Assembly (NCBI GenBank): GCA_035275345.1
Contig: DATEMY010000358.1
Span: 8,314-72,313 of the forward strand
Direction of reading: 5' to 3'
Length of the DNA: 64,000 bases
From: Blastocatellia bacterium
GTDB lineage: Bacteria > Acidobacteriota > Blastocatellia > RBC074
The stretch's first letter is position 1; each line of letters starts with the position of its first letter. A model generated the notes under the pieces. The model worked only from the letters and a program-made list of their open reading frames with translations. It searched no databases and was not told the DNA's origin. Shown one piece after another: positions 3,087 through 22,324 of this stretch. Made by a program: the position numbers and the translations under genes.

Positions 3087-3353
3087 ATGTGTCTGGCCGT
3101 TCCCGGAAAGATCGTCAGCATTGAGGGCGACGACCCGATATTGCGCGACGGAAAAGTGAATTTCGGCGGAGTAGTCAAGCGGGTCAATTTAAGCTACGTG
3201 CCAGAAGCGAAGATCGGCGATTACGTCGTCGTGCATGTCGGCTTCGCGCTCAGCATAGTTGACGAAGAAGAGGCCAAGCAGGTCTTCGAATACCTGAAAA
3301 CGATTGGCGAGTTGAGCGAGATCGAAGGCGAATCGAATTTGGAGCCTGTATGA
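3087..3353 (+). CDS. hypC: Hydrogenase assembly chaperone HypC
   Basis: Canonical N-terminus [10 protein letters not shown] with Cys2, about 88 aa, RBS-like GGAGAAGGTGAAGG upstream. ATGA overlap with hypD. Confidence 0.85.
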
Positions 3354-4483: not shown

Positions 4484-4486
4484 CCC

Positions 4487-5542
4487 ATGAGCGTCCTGAA
4501 AGATTTCAACCAAATCTGCCCGATTCCGATTGGGCAATACCCTCAGGTGACGCTTGCCCACGGGGGAGGCGGCAGACTGATGCATCAGCTCGTCGAGCGG
4601 ATGTTCATGCCAGCGTTTTCGAACCCGTTGCTCAGCGCGCGGCACGACGGGGCGACGTTCAGCGTCAATGGGTCGAGGCTCGCCTTCACGACCGATTCTT
4701 ACGTGGTCAGCCCGCTCTTCTTTCCTGGCGGGAACATCGGCGCCCTGGCGGTCAACGGCACAGTCAACGACCTGGCGATGTGCGGCGCGCGGCCGCTCTA
4801 CCTGAGCGCTGGGTTCATCCTCGAAGAGGGATTGCCGATGGAGACGCTCTGGAGCGTCGTTCAGTCGATGCGTTGCGCAGCCGACGAGGCGCGCGTCCAG
4901 CTGGTCACCGGTGACACTAAGGTCGTGGACAAGGGCAAAGGCGACGGCATCTTCATCAACACCGCCGGAGTCGGCGTGGTCGAACACGATCTTTCCATTT
5001 CGCCTGCGAGCGTGCGGCCCGGCGACGCGGTTTTGCTGAGCGGCGACCTGGGCCGTCACGGCATAGCGATTATGGCAGAGCGCGAAGGGCTGGCGTTTGA
5101 GAGCGCGATTGAGAGCGATTGCGCGCCGCTCGGCGACCTGGTGATGAGGCTGATCGACGCGAAGATTGAGATTCTTTGCCTGCGCGATCTGACTCGCGGA
5201 GGGTTGGCGAGCGCGTTGGTGGAGATCGCCGAAGCGGCGAAGGTCCAGATCAGGATCGATGAAAACTCAATTCCGGTTCGCGAAGACGTGCGAGGCGCGT
5301 GTGAGATCCTGGGCTTCGACCCGCTCTACCTGGCGAACGAAGGAAGGTTCGTGGCGTTTATCGCCGCGCCAGACGCTGACCGCGCCCTGGACATTTTGAG
5401 ATCACATCCGTTGGGCGATGGCTCTTGCCTGATCGGAAAGGTTACGAATGACTCTCCGCCTGCAGTGGTAATGAAAAGCAGGATCGGCGCCACGCGCATT
5501 ATTGATATGTTCAGCGGCGAGCAACTGCCGCGCATCTGCTGA
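4487..5542 (+). CDS. hypE: Hydrogenase maturation factor HypE
   Basis: PurM-like fold, 351 aa, C-terminal PRIC motif ending the protein (thiocyanate-carrying Cys). Confidence 0.9.
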
Positions 5543-6191: not shown

Positions 6192-6854
6192 GTGCCCCAA
6201 ATTTTTCATCGCAGCGCGAATACGATTTCCAAAGCGAGCATTTACGGCGCGATCTTCATTCTCGCCGGCGTCGCCTGGGCGCTCGCCGAAATCCAACGCT
6301 CGCCCTACAACACGCGGGCCTTCGTAGCGCGCCGGCAGCCCGTGCAGTTCTCTCACAAGCACCACGCCGGCGACGACGGCATTGATTGCCGGTATTGCCA
6401 CACGACGGTCGAGACTTCTTCGTTCGCCGGAATCCCGCCGACCGCGACCTGTATGAATTGCCACTCGCAGCTTTTCGCCAACAGCCAGGCGCTGGCGCTT
6501 GTGCGCGAAAGCTTCAGGACCGGCAGACCGATCGAATGGACTCGCGTCCACGACCTGCCCGAATTCGTTTATTTCAACCACAGCATCCACGTCAACAAAG
6601 GCGTCGGCTGTTCGACATGCCACGGGCGCGTAGATGAGATGCCGTTGATGTGGAATGTCGCGTCGCTGCACATGGAATGGTGTCTGGAATGTCACCGCAA
6701 CCCTGCCAAATACATCAGGCCGCGCGAGCAGGTTGTCAACATGGACTGGCCGCCGCCCGGTTACGACCAGATGACCGAGGGAAAAAGGCTGATGAAGCGA
6801 TACAACATCGATTCCGTCGAGGCGATCACCAACTGCTCGACCTGTCACCGTTGA
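6192..6854 (+). CDS. actA: Alternative complex III subunit ActA, pentaheme cytochrome c
   Basis: Five CxxCH motifs (CRYCH, CMNCH, CSTCH, CLECH, CSTCH), N-terminal membrane anchor, first gene of an actABCDEF block. Confidence 0.8.
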   Translation: MPQIFHRSANTISKASIYGAIFILAGVAWALAEIQRSPYNTRAFVARRQPVQFSHKHHAGDDGIDCRYCHTTVETSSFAGIPPTATCMNCHSQLFANSQALALVRESFRTGRPIEWTRVHDLPEFVYFNHSIHVNKGVGCSTCHGRVDEMPLMWNVASLHMEWCLECHRNPAKYIRPREQVVNMDWPPPGYDQMTEGKRLMKRYNIDSVEAITNCSTCHR

Positions 6855-6858
6855 GGGA

Positions 6859-9800
6859 TTGCCGATGACCGCGAAAGCCAGGGAAATGGATATTGCGGCG
6901 CTCCGCGCGCGGCTCGCGGAGTCGCATGGCAAGGAGTATTGGCGCAGCCTGGAAGAACTGGCCGAGTCCGAAGCCTTCCAGGAATCGCTGCGGCGTGAAT
7001 TTCCGAACGGCGCCGAGGAATGGAACGGCGTAATTGACCGCCGCCATTTTCTGCGACTGATGGGCGCGTCGTTGGCGCTCGCGGGATTGACGGCCTGCAC
7101 GCGCCAGCCGGCCGAGACCATCGTGCCATATGTGTATCCGGCCGTAGATATCACGCCGGGCCGGCCACTCTATTTCGCGACGGCGATGCCGATGGGCGGC
7201 GCGGCCGAGGGATTGTTAGTCGAAAGCCACGAAGGGCGTCCGACCAAGATCGAGGGCAACCCGAACCACCCGGCCAGCCTTGGCGCGACTAGCCTGTTCG
7301 CTCAGGCCTCTGTGCTGACGCTCTACAACCCCGATCGCGCGCGCACCATCACCAACCTCGGAGAGATCCTCTCCTGGGACGCGTTCACCACTGATCTCCA
7401 GCGATCGCTCGCTGAAAAGCGCGCCGGCCAGGGCGCCGGATTGCGCATCCTGACCGGGAGCGTCTCTTCGCCAACACTCATCAATCAGATCAAAACGCTG
7501 GGCGCCGGATTACCGGCGGCGAAGTGGCATCAATACGAACCAGTCAATCAAGACAACGCGCAGGCCGGCGCCCGGATGGCGTTCGGCGAATCGGTCAATA
7601 CGATCTACCGCTTCGAGAATGCCGACGTGATTCTCTCGCTCGACGCCGATTTCCTTGCCTGCGGGCAGGCGAGCCTTCGTTACGCGCGCGAATTCGCTGG
7701 CCGTCGCCGCCTTCTCGACGGCGATCGAGAGATGAACCGGCTCTACGTTGTCGAGGGTTCGATGACTAACACGGGCGCGGTCGCCGACCACCGCTTTCCG
7801 CTGCGGCCGAGCGAAATCGAAAGCTTCGCGCGAGAGGTCGCCGCCAACCTTGGCATCCAGGCCGGAGGGCAGGCCGGAGGACGAGCCGGAGGGCGGCCGG
7901 GCGACGCGCAGACGAAATGGCGGAATTGGGCCGAGCCGATCGCGCTTGACCTTCAAAAGCGCCACGGCAGGAGCCTGGTCATCGCGGGCGATTCGCAGCC
8001 GCCCGCCGTTCACGCGCTCGCGCACGTCATGAATCAATCGCTCGGTAATGCCGGCGTCACGGTCGTCTACGTCGCGCCGGTCGAAGCCAATCAGGTTAAT
8101 CAGACACAATCGCTCGGCGAACTGGCGCGCGATATGGACGCCGGTCAAGTCGATCTGCTGGTTATCGTCGGCTGCAACCCGGTCTACGACGCGCCTGTCG
8201 ACCTGAAATTCGCCGAGCGCATGTCGAAGGTCGGGACGCGTATCCACCTCAGCCTGTTCCACGACGAGACCTCGGAACTTTGTCACTGGCACGTCCCAGA
8301 ATCGCACTACCTGGAGACGTGGAGCGACGCGAGCGCTTACGACGGCACGGTGACGATCATCCAGCCGCTGATCGCGCCGCTCTACGAAAGCAAATCGGCG
8401 CACGAACTGCTGGCGGCCCTGTCAGGGCGGCCTCAACAATCGGGCTACGAGATCGTGCGCGACTTTTGGATGGAACAGCGCGGAGCAAAGGCGCAGCCTG
8501 CGCAGACGCCGCCGCCGATACCGGACCGGGCGCAAAATGAACAGGAGGCGGCTCAGGTCATAACGCAACTCCAGGCGAGACCTCAACCGACGGCCTTCGA
8601 CCAATGGTGGCAGGATGTGTTGAGAACAGGCGTAGCGCCGGACACGGCGTTCCATCCGAAACCGGTTTCAGCGAAAACCGGCTGGCTGAATCAGAGCGCC
8701 GCGCCGACGGCATCCAATCCATCCAGCCAGTCTAATCCGTCTGGCGGTCAGGACTCGCTCGAAATCATTTTCCGCGCAGATCCGTCGATTTACGACGGGC
8801 GCTTCGCGCATAACGGCTGGCTGCAGGAACTGCCCAAGCCTCTCACCAAAATCGCCTGGGGCAACGCGGTCGAGATCAGCCCCACGACGGCGGAACGATA
8901 CGGCCTGAGTTATGAGCTTGCGTGGCGCGGCGGCGAGCACGGCCAGGCGCTGGTCGACATCGTCGAGCTACAATACCTGGGGCGCAAACTGCTCGCGCCA
9001 GTCTGGATCACGCCCGGCCATGCCGACGGCTGCGCGACGGTCCATCTGGGCTACGGGCGTGCGCGAGGCGGCGGCGTAGGCTCCGGCGTCGGTTTCAACG
9101 CCTACGCGATCCGCACCTCCGACGCGCAGTGGTTCGGACAGGGTTTGACGATCCGCAAGACGGGCCAGCGCCAGCCCGTGGCCACGACACAGCTTCACTA
9201 CACAATGCAAGGGCGCGCTCTGGCGCGCTCCGCCACGCTCGACGAGTTCCGTCATCGTCCTAACTTCGCGCGCGAGGAAGACCCGCCGCCGGACAAATCG
9301 CTCTATCCAGAATGGCCGTACAACAGCTACTCGTGGGGCATGACGATCGATCTGAACGCCTGCGTCGGCTGCAACGCCTGCGTCGTCGCCTGCCAGGCCG
9401 AAAACAACATCCCGGTCGTCGGCGAGCAAGAGGTGATGCACGGGCGAGAGATGCATTGGCTGCGCATTGACCGCTATTACTCGGGCGCGCTCGACCGTCC
9501 CGAAACATACTTTCAACCTGTCCCCTGCATGCAATGCGAGAAGGCGCCGTGCGAACTGGTCTGCCCTGTAGGCGCGACATTGCACAGCTCCGAGGGCTTG
9601 AACGATCAGGTCTACAACCGCTGCGTCGGCACGCGCTACTGCTCGAACAACTGCCCGTACAAGGTCCGCCGCTTCAACTTTTTCCTCTACCCGGATTGGA
9701 ACACGCCGCAACTGAAGATGCAGCGCAACCCCGACGTGAGCGTGCGCTCGCGCGGCGTGATGGAGAAATGCACTTACTGCGTGCAGCGCATCCAGGAAGC

Positions 9801-10065
9801 GAAGATCACCGCCGAAAAGGAAGAGCGCAAGGTGCGAGACGGCGAGATCAAGACGGCCTGCCAGCAAGCCTGTCCAGCAGAGGCGATCGTCTTCGGAGAC
9901 ATCAACGACAAGTCTAGCCGCGTGGCGAGGCTCAAACAAGAGCCGCGCAATTACGCCATGCTCGCCGAACTCAATACGCGCCCGCGCACAACCTATCTGG
10001 CGGCTGTGCGCAACCCAAATCCGGAGATCGAATCAGAGGAGGCCGGACCCGATGGCCGTGGATGA
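6859..10065 (+). CDS. actB: Alternative complex III subunit ActB: molybdopterin-oxidoreductase-like domain fused to a 4Fe-4S ferredoxin-like domain, Tat signal
   Basis: Twin-arginine signal RRHFLRLMGASLALAGLTAC; C-terminal Cys clusters CVGCNACVVAC, CMQCEKAPC, CVGTRYC, CTYCVQR; 1068 aa. Confidence 0.85.
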   Translation: MPMTAKAREMDIAALRARLAESHGKEYWRSLEELAESEAFQESLRREFPNGAEEWNGVIDRRHFLRLMGASLALAGLTACTRQPAETIVPYVYPAVDITPGRPLYFATAMPMGGAAEGLLVESHEGRPTKIEGNPNHPASLGATSLFAQASVLTLYNPDRARTITNLGEILSWDAFTTDLQRSLAEKRAGQGAGLRILTGSVSSPTLINQIKTLGAGLPAAKWHQYEPVNQDNAQAGARMAFGESVNTIYRFENADVILSLDADFLACGQASLRYAREFAGRRRLLDGDREMNRLYVVEGSMTNTGAVADHRFPLRPSEIESFAREVAANLGIQAGGQAGGRAGGRPGDAQTKWRNWAEPIALDLQKRHGRSLVIAGDSQPPAVHALAHVMNQSLGNAGVTVVYVAPVEANQVNQTQSLGELARDMDAGQVDLLVIVGCNPVYDAPVDLKFAERMSKVGTRIHLSLFHDETSELCHWHVPESHYLETWSDASAYDGTVTIIQPLIAPLYESKSAHELLAALSGRPQQSGYEIVRDFWMEQRGAKAQPAQTPPPIPDRAQNEQEAAQVITQLQARPQPTAFDQWWQDVLRTGVAPDTAFHPKPVSAKTGWLNQSAAPTASNPSSQSNPSGGQDSLEIIFRADPSIYDGRFAHNGWLQELPKPLTKIAWGNAVEISPTTAERYGLSYELAWRGGEHGQALVDIVELQYLGRKLLAPVWITPGHADGCATVHLGYGRARGGGVGSGVGFNAYAIRTSDAQWFGQGLTIRKTGQRQPVATTQLHYTMQGRALARSATLDEFRHRPNFAREEDPPPDKSLYPEWPYNSYSWGMTIDLNACVGCNACVVACQAENNIPVVGEQEVMHGREMHWLRIDRYYSGALDRPETYFQPVPCMQCEKAPCELVCPVGATLHSSEGLNDQVYNRCVGTRYCSNNCPYKVRRFNFFLYPDWNTPQLKMQRNPDVSVRSRGVMEKCTYCVQRIQEAKITAEKEERKVRDGEIKTACQQACPAEAIVFGDINDKSSRVARLKQEPRNYAMLAELNTRPRTTYLAAVRNPNPEIESEEAGPDGRG

Positions 10066-11458
10066 GCTGCCGCCCAAAGTCGTCAACCGCGAGCCGGACA
10101 TTCCGCCGGTGATCGGCCCCGGCCACAGCTTCGCGTCGATCACCGACAAAATCAGCTCGATCGTCTTATCGCGCCGCACGCCGCCCGGATGGGTCGCGGG
10201 CTTCGCTCTCGCCTTCCTGCTGGTGATGATGCTCGGCTTCGCCGTAGGTTATCTGCTGATCAGAGGCGTGGGCATCTGGGGCATCGACATCCCCGTGGCG
10301 TGGGGATTCGCCATCGTCAACTTCGTCTGGTGGATCGGGATCGGGCACGCTGGCACGCTGATCTCGGCGATCCTGCTCCTGCTTAACCAGAAATGGCGCA
10401 CCTCGATCAACCGTTTCGCCGAGGCGATGACGCTTTTCGCCGTGGCCTGCGCGGGAATGTTCCCGCTGCTGCACTTGGGACGCCCGTGGCTGTTCTATTG
10501 GCTGTTTCCCTATCCGAACATAATGAACGTGCAGCCGCAATTCCGGAGCCCGCTGGTCTGGGACGTCTTCGCGGTCTCGACCTATTTCACCGTCTCACTG
10601 GTCTTCTGGTTCGTAGGGCTGGTCCCCGACCTGGCGACGCTGCGCGATCGTGCGCGATCTCACGCGGGGCGGATCGTATACGGGATGCTGGCAATGGGGT
10701 GGCGCGGTTCGGCGCGGCATTGGAAGCGTTACGAGGTCGCTTACCTGCTGCTGGCCGGACTGGCCACGCCGCTGGTGGTTTCTGTTCACACGGTGGTCAG
10801 CTTCGACTTCACGATCGCGATACTGCCCGGATGGCATTCGACCATCTTTCCGCCCTACTTCGTCGCGGGCGCGATCTTTTCGGGCTTCGCGATGGTGCTG
10901 ACGATCGCCGTCCCGCTGCGCAGGTTCTACGGCCTGGAAGATTTCATCACGCTGCGCCACCTGGACAACTGCGGCAAGGTGATGCTGGCCACGGGGCTGA
11001 TCGTCGCCTACGGCTACATGTGCGAGATTTTTCTCTCCTGGTACAGCAAGGACAAGTTCGAGTGGTTTATGACGCGGAACCGGATATTCGGGCCGTACTG
11101 GATGGTCTTCTGGAGCGTGATGGCGCTCAACGTCGCCGTTCCGCAACTGCTCTGGTCTCGGCGCGTCCGGCGCAGCGCGGCGGCGCTGTTTCTGGTCTCG
11201 TTGGCGATCAACATCGGGATGTGGCTAGAGCGATACATGATCGTGATCACCAGTTTGAGCCGCGATTTTATGCCCTCGGCGTGGGGGCAGTACGCCGCGA
11301 CGGTGTGGGATTACGCGGTTTTCGCGGGAACCATCGGCTTCTTCGTCGCGATGATGTTTCTGTTCTTGCGGTTCCTGCCGGCGATCTCCATCGCGGAGAT
11401 GCGCACGTTGTTGCCGCAGGCCGAAGTCAAAGAAGAAGAAGAGGAGGTACCGGCGTGA
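10052..11458 (+). CDS. actC: Alternative complex III subunit ActC (NrfD/PsrC-like polytopic quinol-interacting membrane subunit)
   Basis: About 10 predicted TM helices with an NrfD-like pattern; follows actB with a 14-nt overlap. Confidence 0.8.
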   Translation: MAVDELPPKVVNREPDIPPVIGPGHSFASITDKISSIVLSRRTPPGWVAGFALAFLLVMMLGFAVGYLLIRGVGIWGIDIPVAWGFAIVNFVWWIGIGHAGTLISAILLLLNQKWRTSINRFAEAMTLFAVACAGMFPLLHLGRPWLFYWLFPYPNIMNVQPQFRSPLVWDVFAVSTYFTVSLVFWFVGLVPDLATLRDRARSHAGRIVYGMLAMGWRGSARHWKRYEVAYLLLAGLATPLVVSVHTVVSFDFTIAILPGWHSTIFPPYFVAGAIFSGFAMVLTIAVPLRRFYGLEDFITLRHLDNCGKVMLATGLIVAYGYMCEIFLSWYSKDKFEWFMTRNRIFGPYWMVFWSVMALNVAVPQLLWSRRVRRSAAALFLVSLAINIGMWLERYMIVITSLSRDFMPSAWGQYAATVWDYAVFAGTIGFFVAMMFLFLRFLPAISIAEMRTLLPQAEVKEEEEEVPA

Positions 11459-11997
11459 GGAGGCGCAAGCCGCGTTATTACGGCCTGATGGCCGAATTCG
11501 ACAGCCCGACGGCGGTCGTCGACGCGACCCGGCGCGCTTACGCGGAAGGCTACCGCCGAATGGACGCTTACACGCCGTTCCCGGTCGAAGGCCTGGCCGA
11601 GGAGATGCGCTTCCACCACACGCGGGTGCCGTTGATCGTGCTGCTGGGAGGCCTGGCCGGATGCCTGGGCGGGTATTTTTTGCAGTACTGGATCGCGGCG
11701 ATCTACTGGCCGCTGAACATCGCCGGCCGGCCGCTCAACAGTTGGCCTATGTTCATTCCGGTGACCTTTGAATTGACGGTGCTGGCGGCGGCGCTCTCGG
11801 CGTTGTTAGGAATGTTGGCGCTGAACGGATTGCCGCACCCCTATCACCCGGTCTTCAACGTCCCGCGCTTCGCGCTGGCGTCGCAGGATCGCTTCTTCCT
11901 GTGCATCGAGGCGAGCGATCCGCGATTCGACCGCGCGGCGACGCGGGATTTTCTGGAGAGTCTGTCGCCACGGGAGGTGAGCGATGTCGAGAGTTAA
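11455..11997 (+). CDS. actD: Alternative complex III subunit ActD
   Basis: GTG at 11455 preceded by GAGGAGG; GTGA overlap with the actC stop. Sequence YGLMAEFDSPTAVVDATRRAYAEGYRRMDAYTPFPVEGL is typical of ActD (DUF3341) with two TM helices. Confidence 0.6.
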   Translation: MRRRKPRYYGLMAEFDSPTAVVDATRRAYAEGYRRMDAYTPFPVEGLAEEMRFHHTRVPLIVLLGGLAGCLGGYFLQYWIAAIYWPLNIAGRPLNSWPMFIPVTFELTVLAAALSALLGMLALNGLPHPYHPVFNVPRFALASQDRFFLCIEASDPRFDRAATRDFLESLSPREVSDVES

Positions 11998-12030
11998 TCA
12001 AAGACACAGAGGCGCAGCGACACAGAGACG

Positions 12031-12200
12031 AAAAGGGGGAGACAAGGGGACAAGGGGACAAGGGGACAAGGAGACAAGGGGACAAAGTGGAAAGGACAGA
12101 AGGAAAATGAAGGAAGGGGAACGGGAGGACATATGTTTTTCTCCTCGTCCCCTTTTCTCCCTGTCCCATTGTCTCCCTGTCCCCTTGTCCCCTTGTCTCC
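12031..12200. repeat. Inverted array of imperfect octamer repeats: (GGGGACAA)x6 on the left arm and (TTGTCCCC)x6 on the right arm, separated by about 45 nt. Predicted long RNA/DNA hairpin inside the ACIII operon between actD and actE
   Basis: Read directly: left arm 12036-12098 is GGGGAGACAAGGGGACAAGGGGACAAGGGGACAAGGAGACAAGGGGACAAAGTGG. Right arm 12150-12200 is CCCTTTTCTCCCTGTCCCATTGTCTCCCTGTCCCCTTGTCCCCTTGTCTCC. Confidence 0.6.
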
Positions 12201-12208
12201 GCGTCTCC

Positions 12209-12760
12209 GTGGCGATAACGCTGGTCTTGTTTGCTGTCGCGTGCCGCCAGGACATGCAGGACCAGCCGAAGTATAAGCCGCTGGCGCCGAGCCGATTCTT
12301 CAGCGACGGGAAATCGGCGCGACAGCTCGTTGAAGGCGTCGTGCCGTTCCAGCCCGGAGGCCAGGCGATTTCGCCGATGACCGACGAGTCGAAGGCCACG
12401 GCGCTACCGTTCCCGCTCACGCCGCAGGCGCTGGATCGCGGCCAGGAGCGGTTCAACATCTACTGCGCGCCGTGTCACGGGCGGTTGGGTTACGGCGACG
12501 GAATGGTCGTGCGGCGCGGATTTCTCGCGCCGCCGTCTTACCACACTGACCGCTTGCGCCGGGAGCCGGTCGGGCATTTTTACGACGTGATGACGAACGG
12601 CTTCGGCGCGATGCCAAGTTACGCCGACAAAGTCGCGCCGCGCGACCGTTGGGCCGTCGCCGCTTACATACGCGCGCTGCAACTGAGCCAGCGCGCGACG
12701 ATCAACGACGCGCCGCCGGAATATCGCGACAAGCTTCAATCGGGAGGGCAAAAGCAGTGA
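12209..12760 (+). CDS. actE: Alternative complex III subunit ActE, monoheme cytochrome c lipoprotein; start uncertain
   Basis: Single CAPCHG heme motif. Lipobox-like LFAVAC followed by RQDMQDQPKYKP. The track ORF begins at 11984, but its first 75 codons are encoded by the octamer repeat array (GDKGTRGQGDK low-complexity peptides). In-frame GTG at 12209 is proposed. Confidence 0.55.
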   Translation: MAITLVLFAVACRQDMQDQPKYKPLAPSRFFSDGKSARQLVEGVVPFQPGGQAISPMTDESKATALPFPLTPQALDRGQERFNIYCAPCHGRLGYGDGMVVRRGFLAPPSYHTDRLRREPVGHFYDVMTNGFGAMPSYADKVAPRDRWAVAAYIRALQLSQRATINDAPPEYRDKLQSGGQKQ

Positions 12761-13962
12761 TTGACGCGCAACAGCTTTACATCGCGCCGACTGCCGCAGG
12801 ACGCATACAACAACGCGCGCTGATCGTCGGCGCCATGGGGCTTATCCTGTGCGTCGTGGGGGCGATCTTTCGTCCCGCCCTGTTCCTGCAATCGTACCTG
12901 TTCGCCTATCTCTTCACACTCGGCCTGGCGCTCGGGAGCATGGCGATTTTGATGTTGCAGTACCTGACGGGCGGCGATTGGGGCGTGGTGGTCCGGCGCG
13001 TCCTCGAAGCGGCGATGCGGACTCTGCCCTGGCTTGCGGCGGGCTTTCTGCCCGTCGCGCTGGGCGTGCGCGAGCTCTACGTGTGGGCGCGCCCAGCGCA
13101 GGCGGCCGCTTTGGGGCTGGATTATCGAACCGAATATTTGAACGTCCCGTTCTTCATCGCCCGCGCCGTCCTCTATTTCGCCGTCTGGCTGGCGATGGCC
13201 CGTCTGCTCGACCGATGGTCGCGGGAGCAAGATCGCGGCGCGGCGCTGGGATGGTTGAAACGACTACGGCGATTGAGCGGACCGGGGCTGGTGATTTATG
13301 CCGTGACGATCACCTTCGCGGCCTACGACTGGCTGATGTCGCTCAACCCGGAATGGTACTCGACGATCTTCGGGCTGCTCATTATCGCCGGACAGGCGCT
13401 CTCTGCTGTGGCGTTCGCGATCCTCGTCGCGGCGCTGCTCTCGACGCGCGAGCCGATGGCGGTGGTTCTCCAGCCGAGACACTTCCACGACCTCGGAAAG
13501 TTGATGCTCGCGTTCGTTATGGTCTGGGCCTATCTGTCCTTCTCTCAGCTTCTGATCGTCTGGTCGGGGAATCTGCCGCAGGAGATCCCGTTCTACCTTC
13601 CGCGAATGCAGAGCAGTTGGCGATGGGTAGGCATCCTCTTGATCGTCTTGCATTTCGCGCTGCCGTTCGCGCTGTTGCTCTCGCGCGATCTGAAGCGGCG
13701 CGCCGGATCGCTGGCGGCGCTCGCGGGCTTGGTGATCGTGATGCGAGTGACGGACCTATTCTGGCTGGTCGCCCCGGAGTTCCGCCGCCAGGGACTGGCG
13801 ATTGACTGGTTTGATCCGGTCACGGTCGTCGGGCTTTGTGGCCTGTGGCTGGCGCTGTTCACCCGGGAATTGAGAACGAGGCCGATGCTGCCGCTGCGCG
13901 ACCCGCATCTGGTCGACGCGCTGAGCGCGGGAGAACAGTATTCGGTTAATCGCCGGGAGTGA
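12757..13962 (+). CDS. actF: Alternative complex III subunit ActF (second NrfD-like membrane subunit)
   Basis: Polytopic membrane protein paralogous in pattern to ActC. GTG at 12757 with GGGAGGG RBS; GTGA overlap with the actE stop. Confidence 0.7.
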   Translation: MIDAQQLYIAPTAAGRIQQRALIVGAMGLILCVVGAIFRPALFLQSYLFAYLFTLGLALGSMAILMLQYLTGGDWGVVVRRVLEAAMRTLPWLAAGFLPVALGVRELYVWARPAQAAALGLDYRTEYLNVPFFIARAVLYFAVWLAMARLLDRWSREQDRGAALGWLKRLRRLSGPGLVIYAVTITFAAYDWLMSLNPEWYSTIFGLLIIAGQALSAVAFAILVAALLSTREPMAVVLQPRHFHDLGKLMLAFVMVWAYLSFSQLLIVWSGNLPQEIPFYLPRMQSSWRWVGILLIVLHFALPFALLLSRDLKRRAGSLAALAGLVIVMRVTDLFWLVAPEFRRQGLAIDWFDPVTVVGLCGLWLALFTRELRTRPMLPLRDPHLVDALSAGEQYSVNRRE

Positions 13963-14474: not shown

Positions 14475-14478
<4 letters not shown>

Positions 14479-16280
14479 GACCGCCGACTATAAAAACGAT
14501 CATCTATCTGGCGCTACTCGCCGCCTCGGCCTCGGCCCAGCCTTCGCGTCCCGTCAAGCCGAGCGACATCGGTTTCGATCAACGGCTGGACGAAGCAGTC
14601 CCGCTCGGCCTCACGTTCCGCGACGAGAGCGGAAAGTCGGTTGAACTCGGCGATTACTTCAATGGCAAACCCGTCATCCTCGCGCTCGTCTATTACCAGT
14701 GCCCGATGCTCTGCAACCAGGTGTTGAACGGGTTGGCCGGTGGCTTGAAGGCGCTCCCCTTCGATGCGGGCAGAGAGTTCGAGGTCGTCGTCGTCAGCAT
14801 CAACCCGCGCGAGACTTCGGCTTTGGCCGCCGCGAAGAAGGAGAGCTACGCGCGCGATTACTGGCGCGCGGGCGCGGCTTCGGGCTGGCATTTCCTGACC
14901 GGCGACCCGAAGCCGATTGACTCGTTGTCGAAGGCGGTCGGGTTCCGCTTTGCCTACGACCCGATGCTCAACCAGTACGCGCACGCCTCGGGCGTTATCG
15001 TTCTGACCCCCAAGGGCAGAGTCGCGCGTTACTTTTACGGCGTCGAGTACGCGCCGCGCGACCTGCGATTCGGATTGATCGAGGCGGCCGAGGAGAGGAT
15101 CGGTACGCCGGTGGATCAGGTCCTGCTGCTCTGTTACCAGTACGATCCGAAGACCGGAAAATACAGCGCGGCGGTCATGAAGTCGCTGCGGCTGGGCGGC
15201 GGCGTGACGGTGATCGGTGTTGCCGCACTATTGTTAGCATTGAGCCGCAAGGCGAAGAGAGAAAGGCGAAGCGCCAAGCCCAAGAATTACTGCTTACTCC
15301 CGTTCGGCGCGCTGTTCATTCCGTTCCTGCCCGAAAACGCGTCGAGCTTCGCCGGCGACGTCGACGCGCTCTTTTTCACGCTGGTCGGCCTCTCGGTCTT
15401 TTTCGCCGTGCTGATCGCCGGGCTGGAAATCTATTTCGCGATGAAATACCGCCGCCGCTCACCTGGAGAGATTCCGCCCAAGACCGCCACGTCGTTCGCG
15501 CTCGAAGCGGCCTGGATCGGCATCCCGTTCCTGATCTGCCTGGTGATTTTCGTCTGGGGCGCGAGCCTTTATTACAGGATCTACAGCGCGCCGAAAGAAA
15601 CAATGGAGATTTACGTCACGGCCAAGCAATGGATGTGGCGATTCCAGCACGCCGGCGGCCAGCGTGAGATCAACGAACTGCATGTGCCGCTCGGGAGCCG
15701 CGTCAAGCTGACGATGGCGAGCGAGGACGTCATCCACAGCTTCTTCGTGCCTGCGTTCCGCGTCAAGGCCGACGTGCTGCCAGGCCAGGGACGCTACCGG
15801 GTCGTCTGGTTCGAGCCGACCAAGCCCGGACGATGGCGCCTCTTCTGCGCCGAATATTGCGGGATGAACCATTCGGGGATGATCGGCTGGGTCGAGGTGA
15901 TGCGGCCCCAGGAGTTTCAGGCCTGGCTCGGCGCCGGCGGCGCCGAAGGCTCGATGGCTTCGTCGGGGCAGAAACTGTTTCAGCAACTGCCTTGCGCCAC
16001 GTGCCACAAAACCGACGGGGCGGGGCGCTGTCCAGTGCTCGAAGGGCTGTTTGGCAAACAGGTCCAATTGCAGGACGGGCGAACCGTGACCGTCGACGAG
16101 GACTACGTCCGCGAATCGATCCTCGATCCGAATGCGAAGGTCGCGGCGGGCTACGAGCCGATCATGCCAAACTTCACTGGACTGCTCAGCGAAGAGCAGT
16201 TGGCGCAAATTATCGCTTACATCAAATCGATCGGAGGGCCGCAACAGGGCGCGGCGACCAGGCCGGAAGGACAGAAATAA
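14475..16280 (+). CDS. coxB: Fusion ORF: SCO1/SenC copper chaperone domain + cytochrome c oxidase subunit II (CuA) + C-terminal cytochrome c domain (caa3-type)
   Basis: N-terminal signal peptide, SCO motif CPMLC with downstream His in a thioredoxin-like domain (residues about 40-230). Then TM helices and the CuA site [13 protein letters not shown]...[13 protein letters not shown]. Then CATCHK heme c site. No in-frame stop between domains; internal ATG at 15177 ([14 protein letters not shown]). Confidence 0.7.
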
Positions 16281-17998
16281 TGAGAGCGGAGCCGAGAGAG
16301 GTTGAAACTTACGAAGACTATTTGAACAACGATTACGGTTGGAAGTCGTGGCTGTTCACCACCGACCACAAGCGCATCGGGCTGCTCTATCTGGTCTCGA
16401 TCACGCTCTTCTTCTTCCTGGGCGGCTTTTTCGCGCTGCTCATCCGGCTGGACCTGATGACGCCCCCGGGCGACCTTATTTCGTCCGAAACGTACAACAA
16501 GATGTTCTCGATGCACGGCATCATCATGGTCTTCTTCTTTCTGATCCCCTCGATCCCGACCGTGCTCGGGAATTTTTTCGTGCCGATGATGGTCGGCGGG
16601 CGCGACGTGGCCTTCCCGCGATTGAACCTGTTGAGCTGGTACCTGTTCAACCTCGGCGGGCTGTGCATGCTCTACACCGTGGTCAATGGCGGCGTGGACA
16701 CGGGATGGACGTTCTATCCGCCTTACAGCGCCAGCTTCTCGAACACGAACGTCGCGATGGCCGTTACCGCGATCTTCATTGTCGGGTTTTCGTCGATCCT
16801 GACCGGGTTGAACTTCGTCATCACCATTCATGCGATGCGCGCCGCCGGGATGACCTGGTTCCGATTGCCGCTCTTCATCTGGTCGCTCTACGCGACGAGC
16901 CTGATCCAGGTGCTGGGCACACCCATACTGGCGATCACGCTGGCGCTGGTGGCTGGCGAGCGGCTGCTCCATCTGGGCGTCTTCGACCCGGCTTACGGCG
17001 GCGACCCGATCCTTTTTCAACACCTCTTCTGGTTCTACTCGCACCCGGCGGTCTACATCATGATCCTGCCGGCGATGGGCGTGGTCAGCGAGTTAGTGGC
17101 CACCTTTACGCGCAAAGAGATTTACGGATACAGGTTCGTGGCGGCGGCGAGCGTGGCCATCGCCGTCTTTGGCTTCCTGGTCTGGGGCCACCACATGTTC
17201 ACGAGCGGCCAGTCGATTTACGCCGGGTTGATCTTCTCGCTGCTGAGCTACGCGGTGGCGATCCCTTCGGCGGTCAAGGTCTTCAACTGGACGGCGACGC
17301 TCTACAAATCTTCGGTTTCTCTCCAGACGCCGATGCTCTATGCGTTCGGATTCATCGGGTTGTTCACGATCGGCGGGTTGACCGGGTTGTTCGTGGCGGC
17401 GCTCGGCATAGACATTCACCTGACCGACACCTACTTCGTGATCGCGCACTTCCACTACATTATGGTCGGTGGCGCGGTGATGGGCTATCTGGGCGGGATA
17501 CATTACTGGTGGCCGAAGATTTCGGGCCGGATGTACCCGGAGATCTGGGGCAAGCTGGCGGCGCTGATCGTCTTCGTCGGATTCAACCTGACCTTCTTCC
17601 CGCAATTCGTACTGGGTTATCTGGGAATGCCGCGGCGTTATCACGCCTACCCGGATGAGTTTCAAGTGTTGAACGTGATGTCGTCGGCGGGCGCGTCGAT
17701 ACTGGGAGTCGGCTACATCCTGCCGATGATCTACCTGGCGTGGTCGATGCGCTACGGCGAGAAGGCCAGCGCGAACCCGTGGCCCGCAACGGGTCTGGAA
17801 TGGCATACGCCTTCGCCGCCGCCGCCGGAGAATTTTTTGGCGCCGCCCGTCGTAACGTGGGGCGCATACGACATGTCCGCCCAGCCTGAGTTGGTCGCCA
17901 GATTGAATGATGAGGACCGCATGTACGATGCCGCGCTGCGAACAGGCGCGAGGAAGCGCGAGGAATTGGACGTCGCGCCGCCCGCGGCAGGCGCCTAG
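16280..17998 (+). CDS. coxA: Cytochrome c oxidase subunit I
   Basis: ATG at 16280 overlaps the coxB TAA. 12+ TM helices, heme and CuB His ligands ([21 protein letters not shown] motifs). Confidence 0.85.
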
Positions 17999-18160
17999 AT
18001 CTGATGTCAATTGCGTGTTCAGGGTCAACCACGGGGAACACGTGGCCAAGAAAATTAAGAATTATTGCTCCCCTTCTTCATCTCCGCGCTCCCCGTGTTC
18101 CCAGTGGTTAGTCAGTCTTTGCCGTACATAGATGCGAAATCTGACATAGGAGGTTGGGTA

Positions 18161-18835
18161 TTGGCTGAAACTTCGGTCGTGGATCGATACACACACGGCG
18201 CGGCGCGCGCGCATCAGTTCGACGACGCCGCGCAGCAGCGCGACGCGGCGACGATGGGGATGTGGGTCTTTCTGGTCACCGAGATCATGTTCTTCGGCGG
18301 CCTGTTCGCGTCCTACGTCGTCTATCGCGCGCTGTATCCGGCGGCGTTCGCGGTGGCCAGCCAGGCGCTGGACATCACGCTCGGCACGCTCAACACGGGG
18401 GTGCTACTGGTGAGCAGCTTCACGATGGTGGTCGCAGTCTTCGGATCGCAGACCGGGCGGCGGCGGCCGCTCGTCGGCGGGTTAGCGCTGACCATCGCGC
18501 TTGGGATCGTCTTTCTCGGCATCAAGTTTTACGAGTATTACCAGAAATACGTCGAGCATCACATCCCCGGACCGTCGTTCGCATTCCCCGCTCCTTACAC
18601 TGAGCCGGCGAAGATGTATTTCACGCTCTACTTCGCAATGACCGGATTACATGCGGCGCACATGATAATCGGCTGCGGGCTGCTGAGCATCCTGATCGTC
18701 ATGGCGTGGCGCGGACGCTTCACGCCGGAATATCACAGCCCGGTGGAGATCTCGGGCCTCTACTGGCACTTCGTGGACATCATCTGGATATTTCTTTACC
18801 CGCTGCTCTACCTGATCGGGCGGCACCTGGAGTGA
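18161..18835 (+). CDS. coxC: Cytochrome c oxidase subunit III
   Basis: TTG at 18161, 8 nt after TAGGAGG. N-terminus HQFDDAAQQRDAATMGMWVFLVTEIMFFGG is typical of CoxC. The track ORF starts upstream at 18065. Confidence 0.75.
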   Translation: MAETSVVDRYTHGAARAHQFDDAAQQRDAATMGMWVFLVTEIMFFGGLFASYVVYRALYPAAFAVASQALDITLGTLNTGVLLVSSFTMVVAVFGSQTGRRRPLVGGLALTIALGIVFLGIKFYEYYQKYVEHHIPGPSFAFPAPYTEPAKMYFTLYFAMTGLHAAHMIIGCGLLSILIVMAWRGRFTPEYHSPVEISGLYWHFVDIIWIFLYPLLYLIGRHLE

Positions 18836-18847
18836 GAGATTGAGGTC

Positions 18848-19132
18848 ATGCCGGAGCATATCGTCCCAATCAAAACCTACACGACCGTCCTGATCGCGCT
18901 GCTGGTATTAACCGCCACGACCTGCGCCGTCTCGTTCATCGATATGGGGAAGATGAACGCCGTGGTGGCGGTGGCGATCGCTTTCGTCAAGGCGTCGCTG
19001 GTCGCCTTGATCTTCATGCACCTGCGCTACAGCCGCCGATTGATGCTGGTCGTTGTGGCGGCCGGGCTGTTCTGGCTGGGCATATTGATTGCGTTGACGA
19101 TGAGTGATTACCTGACGCGCGGGTGGCAATGA
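18848..19132 (+). CDS. coxD: Cytochrome c oxidase subunit IV (small CtaF/CoxD-like 3-TM subunit)
   Basis: 94 aa, three hydrophobic helices, follows coxC by 12 nt. Confidence 0.55.
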   Translation: MPEHIVPIKTYTTVLIALLVLTATTCAVSFIDMGKMNAVVAVAIAFVKASLVALIFMHLRYSRRLMLVVVAAGLFWLGILIALTMSDYLTRGWQ

Positions 19133-19373
19133 ACCCGCGAGTGAATTTTGATTCTTGAAATAACGGTATGCGCAGGTCGCTCGGTGTCAGCCGAGTTTTT
19201 CTGCGCTATTCGCCGAGTTATTTGTTAATTGGGTCCGGTTATGTACCGACAGATTGAGAAGTTCGAATGTAAGATCGCTCGGAGGAAATCGTTGTGGCCT
19301 GTTACAGAAGGAGTTCCCCATACATTCCCGGCGAAAAAACAACAAAAATAATAAGCGGAGAGGAGAGGTGAAC

Positions 19374-20429
19374 ATGGCGACAACAGCATCGACATTGAGC
19401 GAGCGCCCGCCGGACGTCAAAGAGGCGCACATCATCTGGCTCACGGCCGGTCTGGGTTGCGACGGCGATACGATCTCGGTGACCAACGCCGAGCAGCCCA
19501 GCATCGAGGACGTGATTATGGGGGCGATTCCCGGGCTACCGAAAGCGCATCTGCACAACCCGGTGCTGGCCAAGGAAGTCGGCGACGAATTCATGGATTA
19601 CTTCTACCGCGCCGAAAGGGGAGAACTTGACCCTTTCATCTTCGTCGTCGAGGGGTCAATTCCGAACGAGACGATCAAGCGCGAGGGCTATTGGGCGGCG
19701 CAAGGAACCGACCCGGAGACGGGGCAGCCGATCACGACCTGCGAGTGGATAGACCGCCTGGCGCCGAAGGCCTGGGCGGTGGTGGCCGCTGGAACTTGCG
19801 CCACTTATGGCGGCATTCACGCGATGGAAGGCAATCCGACAGGCTGCATGGGCCTGGCCGATTATCTTGGTTGGGACTTTCGTTCAATCGCCGATATCCC
19901 GATCGTCAACGTGCCAGGATGCCCGGTGCAGCCGGACAACTTTATGGAGACCTTGCTTTACCTGCTCTATCAGGCGGCCGGACTGTCGCCGATGATCCCG
20001 CTGGACGACAAGCTGCGCCCGACATGGCTCTTCGGCAAAACGGTGCATGAAGGCTGCGACCGGGCGGGTTATTACGAGCAGAGCGATTTCGCCCATGAGT
20101 ACGGCTCGCCCAAGTGCCTGGTCAAGGTCGGCTGCTGGGGGCCGGTGGTCAACTGCAACGTGACCAAACGCGGCTGGATGCGCGGCGTCGGCGGCTGCCC
20201 CAACGTCGGCGGCATCTGCATCGCCTGCACCATGCCCGGTTTCCCGGATAAATTCATGCCGTTTATGGACGAACCGCCAGGCTCGGCTCTCTCGACGGGC
20301 TTGGTTGGCGTCTACGGGGGAATGATCCGCGCGCTACGTGGCATCACCAACAACACCGTCAACAAGGAACCGAGTTGGCGGCATCCGGGGCCGCGCCTCA
20401 CCACCGGCTATCGGCCGCGAACATATTAA
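19374..20429 (+). CDS. hhyS: [NiFe]-hydrogenase small subunit, group 1h (high-affinity, Tat-less)
   Basis: ATG at 19374 with AGGAGAGG RBS. N-terminus MATTASTLSERPPDVKEAHIIWLTAGLGCDGDT starts directly at the conserved Fe-S domain, with no RRxFxK Tat signal. 351 aa; Cys-rich C-terminal region. Confidence 0.85.
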   Translation: MATTASTLSERPPDVKEAHIIWLTAGLGCDGDTISVTNAEQPSIEDVIMGAIPGLPKAHLHNPVLAKEVGDEFMDYFYRAERGELDPFIFVVEGSIPNETIKREGYWAAQGTDPETGQPITTCEWIDRLAPKAWAVVAAGTCATYGGIHAMEGNPTGCMGLADYLGWDFRSIADIPIVNVPGCPVQPDNFMETLLYLLYQAAGLSPMIPLDDKLRPTWLFGKTVHEGCDRAGYYEQSDFAHEYGSPKCLVKVGCWGPVVNCNVTKRGWMRGVGGCPNVGGICIACTMPGFPDKFMPFMDEPPGSALSTGLVGVYGGMIRALRGITNNTVNKEPSWRHPGPRLTTGYRPRTY

Positions 20430-20434
20430 TCGAC

Positions 20435-20505
20435 GCCGCGGGCGGTAGCGAGAGTGGTTCCCTGAGCCGATCATCGAGGAAGTCACTCTCGCTACCGCCC
20501 GCGGC
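20435..20505 (+). repeat. Perfect 22-bp inverted repeat (GCCGCGGGCGGTAGCGAGAGTG ... CACTCTCGCTACCGCCCGCGGC) with a 27-nt loop in the hhyS-hhyL intergenic region
   Basis: Read directly from the sequence; sits between the hhyS stop (20429) and the hhyL start (20528). Confidence 0.5.
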
Positions 20506-20527
20506 GCCCACCTGGAAAAGAAGGATT

Positions 20528-22324
20528 ATGGCTACTGCGACTAAATCGATGAAATCGGTTCTGCCCAAAACCGAAGGGCTGGTGGAGATGAACTGGGACC
20601 CGATCACCCGCATCGTCGGCAGCCTCGGCGTCTTCACCAAGATTGATTTTAAGAACAGAGAGGTTAAGGAGTGTTACAGCACTTCTTCGATCTTTCGCGG
20701 CTACAGCGTCTTCATGAAGGGCAAAGACCCGCGCGACGCCCATTTCATCACCAGCCGAATTTGCGGCATCTGCGGCGACAACCATGCCACGTGCGCCGTC
20801 TACGCCCAGAACATGGCCTTCGGGGTGAGGCCGCCGAACCTGGGTGAGTGGATCATCAACCTCGGCGAGGCGGCGGAGTATATGTTCGACCACAACCTCT
20901 ATCAGGATAATCTGGTCGGCGTAGATTTCTGTGAACAGATGGTCAGGGAGACCAACCCGGGCGTGTGGGAGAAGGCGCAACGGAAAGAAGCGCCGAACGC
21001 CAAGCTGCACGGTTACCGAACCATCGCCGACATTATGACGGCGCTCAATCCGTTCAGCGGCGAGTTTTATCGCGAGACGCTGCAAATGAGCCGGCTGACG
21101 CGCGAGATGTTCTGTCTGATGGAAGGCCGCCACGTCCATCCTTCGACGCTCTATCCAGGCGGCGTGGGCACGGCGGGCACGTTGCAGGTCTTCACCGATT
21201 ACCTCGTGCGGCTGATGAAGTACGTCGAGTTTATGAAGAAGGTCGTGCCATTGCACGACGATCTCTTCGACTTCTTTTACGAAGCGCTGCCCGGTTACGA
21301 GAAGGTCGGCGAGCGGCGCGTGCTGTTGGGCTGCTGGGGATCGTTCAATGATCCTTACGTCTGCGATTACACCTACCGGAACATGCCCGAGTGGGGGCGC
21401 GCGATGTATGTCACGCCGAGCGTCATTGTTGACAACCAGGTCGTGACCAATGACCTGGTCAAGATCAACCTCGGCATCCGCATCCTGCTCGGAAGCTCCT
21501 ATTACGAGGATTGGGAGAATGGCGAGACCTTCGTCAGCCACGACCCGCTCGGCAATCCCGTGGACAAACGCCATCCCTGGAACCAGACCACGATTCCCAA
21601 CCCGCAGAAGCGGGATTTCGAGGGGAAGTACACGTGGGTGATGTCGCCGCGCTGGTACGACGAACGGACTGGCGATTACCTGGCGCTCGACACCGGCGGC
21701 GGGCCGTTGCCGCGGTTGTGGGCGACGGCGGCCAACGGACTCGTGGACATCGGCTACGTCAAGGCCACTGGTGGCGGCGTCGTCATAAATCTGCCGAAGA
21801 CCGCGACGCTGCCCGAAGTCTCGTTCGAGTGGAAAATTCCGAAATGGTCGAACGCCATTGAACGCAACCGCGCGCGAACCTACTTCCAGGCCTACGCGGC
21901 GGCCTGCGCGCTCTACTTCTGCGAACAGGCGCTGGGCGAGGTGCGGGCGGGCCACAATAAGACCTGGTCCGATTTCAAAGTTCCGGAGGAGGCCATCGGC
22001 TGCGGCTTCCACGAAGCTGTGCGCGGCGTGCTCTCGCACCACGTCGTGATCCGCGATGGCAAGATCGCCAATTATCACCCGTATCCGCCGACCCCGTGGA
22101 ACGCCAGCCCGCGCGACATCTACGGCACGCCGGGGCCGTATGAAGACGCGGTGCAGGGCACGCCGATCTTCGAAGAGAACGGGCCGGACAATTTCAAAGG
22201 GATAGACATCATGCGAACCGTGCGCAGCTTCGATCCGTGCCTGCCTTGCGGCGTGCATATGTACCTGGGCGCAGGCAAGACGCTGGAGACGCGCCATTCG
22301 CCAATGTTCGGGATGATTCAGTAA
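20528..22324 (+). CDS. hhyL: [NiFe]-hydrogenase large subunit, group 1h
   Basis: L1 motif TSRICGICGDNHA and L2 motif SFDPCLPCGVH match the group 1h/5 signatures. A 21-aa C-terminal extension follows His (cleaved by the maturation protease). 598 aa from the ATG at 20528. Confidence 0.9.
   Translation: MATATKSMKSVLPKTEGLVEMNWDPITRIVGSLGVFTKIDFKNREVKECYSTSSIFRGYSVFMKGKDPRDAHFITSRICGICGDNHATCAVYAQNMAFGVRPPNLGEWIINLGEAAEYMFDHNLYQDNLVGVDFCEQMVRETNPGVWEKAQRKEAPNAKLHGYRTIADIMTALNPFSGEFYRETLQMSRLTREMFCLMEGRHVHPSTLYPGGVGTAGTLQVFTDYLVRLMKYVEFMKKVVPLHDDLFDFFYEALPGYEKVGERRVLLGCWGSFNDPYVCDYTYRNMPEWGRAMYVTPSVIVDNQVVTNDLVKINLGIRILLGSSYYEDWENGETFVSHDPLGNPVDKRHPWNQTTIPNPQKRDFEGKYTWVMSPRWYDERTGDYLALDTGGGPLPRLWATAANGLVDIGYVKATGGGVVINLPKTATLPEVSFEWKIPKWSNAIERNRARTYFQAYAAACALYFCEQALGEVRAGHNKTWSDFKVPEEAIGCGFHEAVRGVLSHHVVIRDGKIANYHPYPPTPWNASPRDIYGTPGPYEDAVQGTPIFEENGPDNFKGIDIMRTVRSFDPCLPCGVHMYLGAGKTLETRHSPMFGMIQ

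Follow-up and report, generated by a model that had tools for sequence, protein, structure and literature searches.

A single gene in a 64,000-nucleotide stretch of DNA from a Blastocatellia bacterium, an acidobacterium of soil (assembly GCA_035275345.1, contig DATEMY010000358.1, positions 8,314 to 72,313 of the forward strand; hereafter the window) fuses a SCO1/SenC copper chaperone domain to its client, cytochrome c oxidase subunit II (CoxB), which ends in a cytochrome c domain. Judged from its sequence, the product runs in order through a signal peptide, the SCO1/SenC domain, a transmembrane (TM) anchor, a basic loop, a short hydrophobic Pro-rich run and a complete caa3-type subunit II. The interpretation that we consider probable is that a C-terminally anchored periplasmic SCO chaperone is tethered, via a membrane hairpin, to its client CoxB-cytochrome c of a caa3 oxidase within one polypeptide. 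An earlier note on this DNA had already described one open reading frame (ORF) joining a periplasmic SCO domain, CoxB and a C-terminal cytochrome c of caa3 type, and this description holds, since the frame is unbroken and the Pfam and TIGR02866 matches are above their cutoffs; likewise, CPMLC, HSFF, the CuA motif, CATCH, the ATG at 15177 and the hydrophobic segment that it singled out were all found. The parts of the gene, with coordinates in the window, are as follows.

14475..16280, + strand: whole fused gene (SCO, membrane hairpin, CoxB and cytochrome c), 601 residues
14475..14540, + strand: N-terminal Sec-type signal peptide, residues 1-22, ending LLAASASA then Q
14580..15053, + strand: SCO1/SenC thioredoxin-like domain, residues 36-193
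15054..15173, + strand: subfamily-specific C-terminal extension of SCO, residues 194-233
15177..15179, + strand: internal in-frame ATG, Met235, not a conserved start
15186..15242, + strand: TM0, the anchor of SCO itself, hydrophobic core at residues 238-256 (modelled helix 233-262), periplasm to cytoplasm
15243..15284, + strand: basic cytoplasmic loop of 14 residues (257-270), eight of them Lys or Arg
15285..15332, + strand: short hydrophobic Pro-rich segment of 16 residues (271-286), specific to the fusion
15351..15584, + strand: the two CoxB helices, TM1 at residues 293-324 and TM2 at 341-370, joined by KYRRRS, a basic loop on the cytoplasmic side
15600..15929, + strand: CoxB cupredoxin domain, CuA ligands H421, C458, E460, C462, H466 and M469
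15957..16232, + strand: C-terminal class I cytochrome c domain, residues 495-586 (PF00034/PF13442), a caa3 feature

The frame runs from the ATG at 14475 to the TAA at 16278-16280 on the + strand with no stop inside, and GGAG sits 12 nt 5' of the ATG. Residues 1-22 would send the SCO domain to the periplasm, the n/h/c pattern and a conserved A-x-A/F-A-Q ending pointing to cleavage. A structural model obtained with AlphaFold2 (AF2) on an alignment of 103 fused sequences, to which the conservation counts below also refer, has a mean predicted local distance difference test (pLDDT) score of 79.8 and a predicted template modelling (pTM) score of 0.46; the domains and TM0, TM1 and TM2 are modelled well, and a helix lies at residues 5-20 within the signal peptide. 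No PDB chain spanning both the SCO and CoxB halves was found by Foldseek.

The SCO half has the hallmarks of a copper chaperone. Pfam SCO1-SenC (PF02630) matches residues 49-183 with 31.9 bits against a cutoff of 22.8, and an alignment with B. subtilis Sco (1XZO) places C76xxxC80 and H170 opposite C45xxxC49 and H135. The CPMLC motif corresponds to residues 76-80 (nt 14700-14714) and H170 to nt 14982-14984; C76 is present in 102 of the 103 fused sequences, while C80, H170 and C220 are found in every one. By both sequence and fold, the nearest solved relative is the Aquifex Sco-like protein 3ME7 (sequence E 2e-10; Foldseek of the SCO part against 3ME7_A, target TM-score 0.83, E 2e-14). With pLDDT values of 85-96 across most of the domain, AF2 and Foldseek together reveal the thioredoxin-like fold expected of SCO1/SenC. 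The N-terminal membrane or lipid anchor of characterised Sco proteins is lacking, but a cleavable-looking N-terminal signal peptide combined with a C-terminal anchor is a trait of the subfamily and no ground for leaving the SCO fold family. A second trait is the motif C220-x2-Y-D-P-x2-G-x-Y230 (nt 15132-15164), situated directly before the membrane helix and present in 103/103 fused sequences and 78/78 unfused SCO ORFs. AF2 confidence is low at residues 218-231, with pLDDT < 50 over this motif, and the extra conserved Cys at the membrane surface is possibly a docking or additional metal site. A separate observation concerns P0036 (629 residues, 72% identity), the sole fused sequence with Phe at the position of C76 and no precomputed SCO Pfam match, which may have undergone decay of the SCO site or contain a sequencing error.

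The CoxB half is equally complete. The NCBIfam CoxB equivalog TIGR02866 covers residues 291-485 (163.3 bits, cutoff 147.7), Pfam COX2 residues 400-470 (51.3 bits) and Pfam cytochrome c residues 497-586. The CuA motif at residues 458-469 corresponds to nt 15846-15881, H421 lies in HSFF, and all the CuA ligands (H421, C458, E460 through its backbone, C462, H466 and M469) are invariant or nearly so among fused relatives. In the cytochrome c domain, C507-A-T-C-H511 corresponds to nt 15993-16007, and C507xxCH511 and M564, the latter likely to be the sixth haem ligand, are invariant. Among PDB chains, the fold of the CoxB-cytochrome c part is matched best by 2YEV_B, subunit IIc of Thermus caa3 (33% identity over 309 columns, E 1.4e-21), and Foldseek also matched the cupredoxin to 1AR1_B. 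One group of fused relatives, P0056-P0064, carries C-S-Q-Y-C-G-L-N-H-S-L-M instead of C-A-E-Y-C-G-x-N-H-S-G-M, its CuA loop having Gln rather than Glu.

The fusion is widely shared among relatives. A homologue search of 5.8 billion proteins gave 5427 matches at E <= 1e-10, and architecture was read on the best 120, nearly all of which are proteins of 594-705 residues with SCO, COX2 and cytochrome c parts and 53-100% identity. They stem from NCBI, JGI, ENA and Logan assemblies and represent more than 100 protein clusters; where sources are named they are Blastocatellia, Blastocatellales, Pyrinomonadaceae and Acidobacteria, and all of these carry the bare label 'cytochrome c oxidase subunit II'. 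In the set used for the tree described below, 108 sequences were classed as fused. The shorter matches are few and lie on short contigs, except P0105 from a 'Chloracidobacterium sp.' (371 residues, 15-kb contig), a candidate unfused close relative that had to be rejected. At its locus, L001 (GCA_017354435.1, JAFMQX010000146.1), tblastn aligns query residues 1-600 in one continuous frame with 85% identity, and the fused gene (3311-5113) starts with TTG where the window has ATG. The deposited annotation chose an internal ATG, yielding a CoxB of 371 residues and leaving ~690 bp, the whole SCO domain, uncalled; similar truncations may hide SCO domains in other annotations of metagenome-assembled genomes (MAGs). 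The open frame was seen at the DNA level in L001 and in three further loci (L002, L006 and L082). Column conservation is 0.75 in the SCO core, 0.81 in the cupredoxin and 0.74 in the cytochrome c domain, and when the window is compared with L001 the Nei-Gojobori ratio of non-synonymous to synonymous substitutions (dN/dS) is the same in the SCO and CoxB parts, at 0.176.

The earlier note called the segment starting at ATG 15177 signal-peptide-like and considered that CoxB might also be made separately from there, or the fusion processed; a signal peptide of CoxB and separate synthesis are not borne out, and processing is conceivable. A comparison of loci shows that the 22-residue segment containing TM0 is homologous to the last helix of every stand-alone SCO of the subfamily; it is followed by eight Lys/Arg and contains no small-x-small cleavage motif. 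Because of these eight basic residues, the positive-inside rule assigns TM0 an N-out/C-in orientation, the reverse of a signal peptide. As for separate synthesis, which is unlikely, Met235 is present in 71 of the 103 fused sequences and replaced by Leu, Thr, Ile or Val in the remainder, it is not preceded by a Shine-Dalgarno sequence, unlike the true start and that of coxA, and it is also common in unfused SCOs that have no in-frame coxB after them. Furthermore, no in-frame ATG, GTG or TTG occurs between residues 257 and 290.

Residues 257-270 match the cytoplasmic tail of stand-alone SCOs. Unfused CoxB proteins begin 4-15 residues before the motif P-F/L-x-P-E-x-A-S and have a short, periplasmic N-tail. 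A cytoplasmic SCO tail has thus been joined to a periplasmic CoxB N-tail, and one further membrane crossing is therefore needed. The candidate for this crossing is the segment at residues 271-286, which leads into the conserved CoxB N-tail P-F-x-P-E-x-A-S. In keeping with the even number of membrane crossings required, every fused linker, divergent ones included, has a basic patch and then a second hydrophobic run of ~9-20 residues. The charges in the window protein fit this topology, with eight Lys/Arg after TM0, five between TM1 and TM2, and none, but three Asp/Glu, in a 12-residue stretch. The linker also has conserved features of its own (N-Y/F-C-L-L-P...); a lipobox at N-Y-C was considered and rejected, the sequence mismatching L-x-[AG]-C. 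Among fused relatives, the fourth hydrophobic segment is most clearly helical in P0056-P0064 (57-59% identity).

The origin of this gene can be traced to two adjacent ones. A scan with the SCO part, limited to one genome per GTDB species, provided 80 loci among the matches listed, which were classed mechanically. In 78 of these 80, distributed over about ten phyla, sco is a separate ORF directly upstream of coxB, and only two (L002 and L006, Acidobacteriota/Blastocatellia) are fused. The unfused sco ends 10-25 residues past its C-terminal hydrophobic helix, in the basic tail, and in 77 of these 78 loci the CoxB N-tail motif is reached 11-165 nt past the sco stop, on the same strand (in L021, coxB lies ~1.5 kb off). 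Unfused loci belong to Pyrinomonadaceae, Blastocatellaceae, Terriglobia, Bryobacteraceae, Solibacter, Vicinamibacterales, Thermoanaerobaculia, Latescibacterota, Gemmatimonadetes, Bacteroidota, Ignavibacteria/Kapaibacterium, Verrucomicrobiota, Planctomycetes, 'Deltaproteobacteria' and Binatia. Since the sco-coxB pair is this widespread among the listed loci, it is ancestral and the fusion is therefore derived. The earlier note had reckoned that relatives with a stop codon between the two domains would argue against the fusion. Such relatives do exist as separate genes, but the fused clade is large and under purifying selection, so that they testify to its origin rather than to an error. An exhaustive HMMER search of 1.84 billion cluster representatives at 50% identity found ~8-10 full-length fusions (31-54% identity) versus hundreds of stand-alone SCOs and CoxBs, in agreement with this order. 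Most fusions belong to Blastocatellia.

The fusion did not arise just once. On a neighbour-joining tree of concatenated SCO and CoxB (186 taxa, 539 columns), the fused or unfused state changes at least 5 times (4-8 in bootstrap replicates) versus at least 49 times when states are shuffled, and is thus strongly heritable yet not of single origin. A single origin is rejected on three counts: there are at least 4 changes, the CPQLC motif variant is present in both fused and unfused proteins, and the unfused L065 is the nearest neighbour on the tree of the fused P0110 group. When L065 is aligned at the nucleotide level with L082, which encodes P0110, the match is good along the SCO tail and resumes at the coxB ATG; between these points the two loci differ by indels totalling ~58 nt, within which lies the stop codon of L065, and the ancestral coxB ATG has been kept in frame inside L082 (..GYTH-M-SILP..). 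The fusion arose from the adjacent sco-coxB pair when the sco stop was lost and the spacer became shorter. The divergent fused proteins P0122-P0125, P0137 and P0195, which differ markedly in composition and show no clear link to Blastocatellia or to any labelled locus, are probably independent fusions. Such repeated gain and loss suggests that the advantage of the fusion is modest or condition-dependent.

The tethered chaperone that we favour would be assembled in four steps. The signal peptide would export the SCO domain, TM0 would then halt transfer and leave the basic loop in the cytoplasm, the short hydrophobic Pro-rich segment would bring the chain back to the periplasm, and CoxB would finally insert in its usual N-out/C-out topology. 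The SCO site (C76, C80 and H170) and the apo-CuA site would therefore lie on the same side of the membrane, in a 1:1 ratio and at very high local concentration, and SCO could perform in cis the job that a free Sco performs in trans, i.e. metallation of CuA through a Sco-Cu(II)-CoxB intermediate and/or by keeping the CuA cysteines reduced. In Bradyrhizobium, the Sco-Cu(II)-CoxB intermediate is an obligatory 1:1 complex of high affinity (Kd < 1e-7 M), and apo-CoxB has only marginal stability on its own (PMC6669012). With a tether the two partners would be certain to meet, and apo-CoxB could be stabilised, a plausible benefit under copper shortage.

Several points weigh against this scenario. The run proposed to re-cross the membrane is short (16 residues in the window; in P0106, P0080 and P0034 it has 9-12 residues or contains an internal Arg), and runs of the P0034, P0106 and P0080 type are either not long enough or not hydrophobic enough to make a standard helix. 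AF2 leaves residues 263-290 as low-confidence coil and, because the pTM score is so low, does not fix the geometry between the domains. The linker is the least conserved part of the protein (column conservation 0.38; dN/dS 0.257 against L001), and such weak conservation would fit an excised segment as well. In addition, Sco is formally not consumed and catalytic amounts might suffice (PMC6669012), so the benefit of a 1:1 fusion is not self-evident; any selective advantage is perhaps small, given that the fusion is labile, with at least 4 changes. Lastly, no motif or partner of the PCuAC type occurs in the 64-kb window.

A bolder version, in which SCO is kept as a permanent stoichiometric domain of the mature caa3 oxidase, or of a supercomplex with alternative complex III (ACIII), beside CuA and with a short, Pro-rich and probably non-helical return strand, seems rather doubtful. 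Were it true, CuA could be re-metallated or redox-repaired in situ, which would help a soil organism short of copper or exposed to oxidative stress, and the protein would be a natural single-chain chaperone-client complex, a sample for trapping Sco-Cu-CoxB structurally.

The most serious rival explanation treats the fused protein as a precursor, or as a bicistronic relic, whose SCO and CoxB parts end up separate through proteolysis of the linker (e.g. by signal peptidase past the second hydrophobic run) or internal initiation. Many CoxB proteins of other bacteria carry cleaved N-terminal signal peptides, which speaks for this possibility, as do the poor conservation of the linker and its low confidence in AF2. 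In P0195 (588 residues, NCBI-derived, 31% identity, low-GC-type), the second hydrophobic segment of the linker (~262-290) resembles a classical signal peptide with A-F-A then E, and the fusion may in that lineage be a precursor split by signal peptidase. In some subgroups, too, a Met (..GYTHMSILP..) still stands exactly where CoxB originally began and lines up with the coxB ATG of the unfused L065. In the clade of the window, however, the linker reads ..IPFLP then ENAS, and this makes a poor signal peptidase I site since it has Pro at -1 and no small residues at -1/-3. Internal initiation meets the obstacles already described, i.e. no start between residues 257 and 290 and a poorly conserved Met235 without Shine-Dalgarno sequence, and a CoxB begun at Met235 would moreover hold TM0 in the wrong orientation. 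That selection has kept the frame open in more than 100 diverged clusters would be needless if the parts were expressed apart, and we therefore regard separation as unlikely in the window protein.

It is less likely still that the SCO part is no CuA chaperone at all and has been co-opted as an accessory domain, for thiol-disulfide or peroxide protection, as an electron-transfer copper site or as a structural bridge. The fold is like that of thioredoxin and peroxiredoxin, there is a weak Redoxin Pfam match (E 0.0011, under cutoff), the PDB entry of 3ME7 names it a 'putative electron transport protein', the extra Cys motif next to the membrane is invariant throughout the subfamily, and the ACIII of R. 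marinus has an unassigned periplasmic density (PMC5928083). Nevertheless, all three canonical copper ligands are invariant and aligned with those of characterised chaperones, and the gene adjoins that of its known client in about ten phyla, a classical assembly-factor signature, while nothing specific speaks for another activity. Finally, a missed stop or a frameshift merging two genes, as might be feared because separate sco and coxB genes are usual in most lineages and a single error would be enough to bridge so short a spacer, is a practically negligible prospect, as is a decaying pseudo-fusion, since the same frame recurs in more than 100 independent clusters from differing projects and assemblers, and in L001, L002, L006 and L082, is under purifying selection, and includes a linker with conserved features and a dN/dS well below 1.

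The fused gene belongs to a typical ACIII-caa3 operon, in which the order is multihaem ActA, FeS ActB, NrfD-type ActC, the ActD region, cytochrome c ActE, ActF, a small ORF (ORF156), the fusion, CoxA, CoxC and a Cox4-like ORF. The genes flanking the fusion are as follows.

6192..13962, + strand: ACIII genes ActA-ActF, identified by Pfam, with ActD (PF11821) called in the syntenic L001
14008..14478, + strand: ORF156, a single-helix ORF of 156 residues, translationally coupled to the fusion gene
16280..17998, + strand: CoxA, Pfam COX1
18065..18835, + strand: CoxC, Pfam COX3
18848..19132, + strand: small Cox4-like membrane ORF, COX4_pro being called at the same position in L001

The ATG of the fusion gene shares ATGA (14475-14478) with the stop of the upstream ORF and its TAA shares TAATG (16278-16282) with the coxA start, and these overlapping codons indicate translational coupling along ORF156, SCO-CoxB and CoxA. 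ORF156 has no Pfam match. In 78 of 81 loci, from many phyla, the ORF immediately before sco is a homologue of it, which makes it a fixed member of an ActF-ORF-sco-coxB module; its position and single helix suggest a candidate ActG subunit of ACIII. No second sco or coxB is present in the 64-kb window. On its 3' side, the oxidase operon is adjoined on the same strand by genes for the small and large subunits of a [NiFe]-hydrogenase (19254-22324, +; Pfam Oxidored_q6 and NiFe_hyd_SSU_C, and NiFeSe_Hases), a proximity that suggests H2 oxidation tied to the aerobic chain.

Sco-assisted assembly of CuA has been well studied and is still incompletely understood. In this respect, the fusion offers 'Rosetta stone' evolutionary support, from a very different bacterial lineage, for a direct 1:1 interaction between Sco and CoxB, and challenges the view that Sco need only be catalytic. 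It could also provide a single-chain system for trapping the transient Sco-Cu(II)-CoxB intermediate for spectroscopy or cryo-EM. More generally, it illustrates how adjacent membrane-protein genes whose products have incompatible termini (C-in and N-out) can fuse via a short extra crossing. There is a practical side as well: because these proteins are labelled plain 'cytochrome c oxidase subunit II' or truncated at an internal ATG, their SCO function is hidden in MAG reconstructions of abundant soil Acidobacteria. Mitochondrial disease results from defects in the human homologues SCO1 and SCO2 (PMC9861957).

Among known systems, the closest counterpart is the stand-alone sco upstream of coxB in ACIII-caa3 (A2-type) clusters (Melioribacter roseus MROS_0039 and loci L003-L081), which belongs to the same subfamily; that SCO genes lie in ACIII/A2-oxidase clusters has been reported (PMC6431628; PMC5492636). 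The signal peptide, CP[MQ]LC, the His, C-x2-Y-D-P-x2-G-x-Y and the C-terminal TM anchor are all shared, as is the gene order ActF, small single-helix ORF, sco, coxB, coxA, coxC. Where these loci have a stop and a spacer, however, the window has an unbroken frame in which the two parts are connected by a new hydrophobic segment. Canonical Scos (B. subtilis Sco/YpmQ, 1XZO; Bradyrhizobium ScoI, 4WBR; yeast and human SCO1) are likewise thioredoxin-like, with CxxxC and a distal His, and have CuA as client, but their sequence similarity to the window SCO is low (E ~1e-3). They carry an N-terminal helix or lipid anchor and act in trans, possibly catalytically, whereas the window SCO has a signal peptide, a C-terminal anchor and an extra Cys motif, and is joined to its client. 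Subunit IIc of Thermus thermophilus caa3 (2YEV chain B) likewise has a pair of TM helices and a CuA cupredoxin fused to a C-terminal cytochrome c, but has neither a SCO domain nor the extra N-terminal membrane hairpin.

The earlier note had remarked that a SCO-CoxB fusion was not familiar from characterised oxidases, and indeed no description of such a protein fusion was found in the searchable open-access literature, although this absence is no proof. Fusions of assembly factors have been reported, namely Sco-CtaM(DUF420) in planctomycetes, CtaG-CopD (CtiP) in Corynebacterium and CtaA-CtaB (PMC13344008; PMC9145763). These also unite cooperating biogenesis components, but they join factor to factor, whereas the window protein joins a chaperone to the structural subunit that it would mature. 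The two domains, their partnership and the adjacency of their genes are thus already known, and what is new is the translational fusion of chaperone and subunit together with the extra membrane crossing, which is not a new kind of biology but a neat case of gene fusion between membrane proteins.

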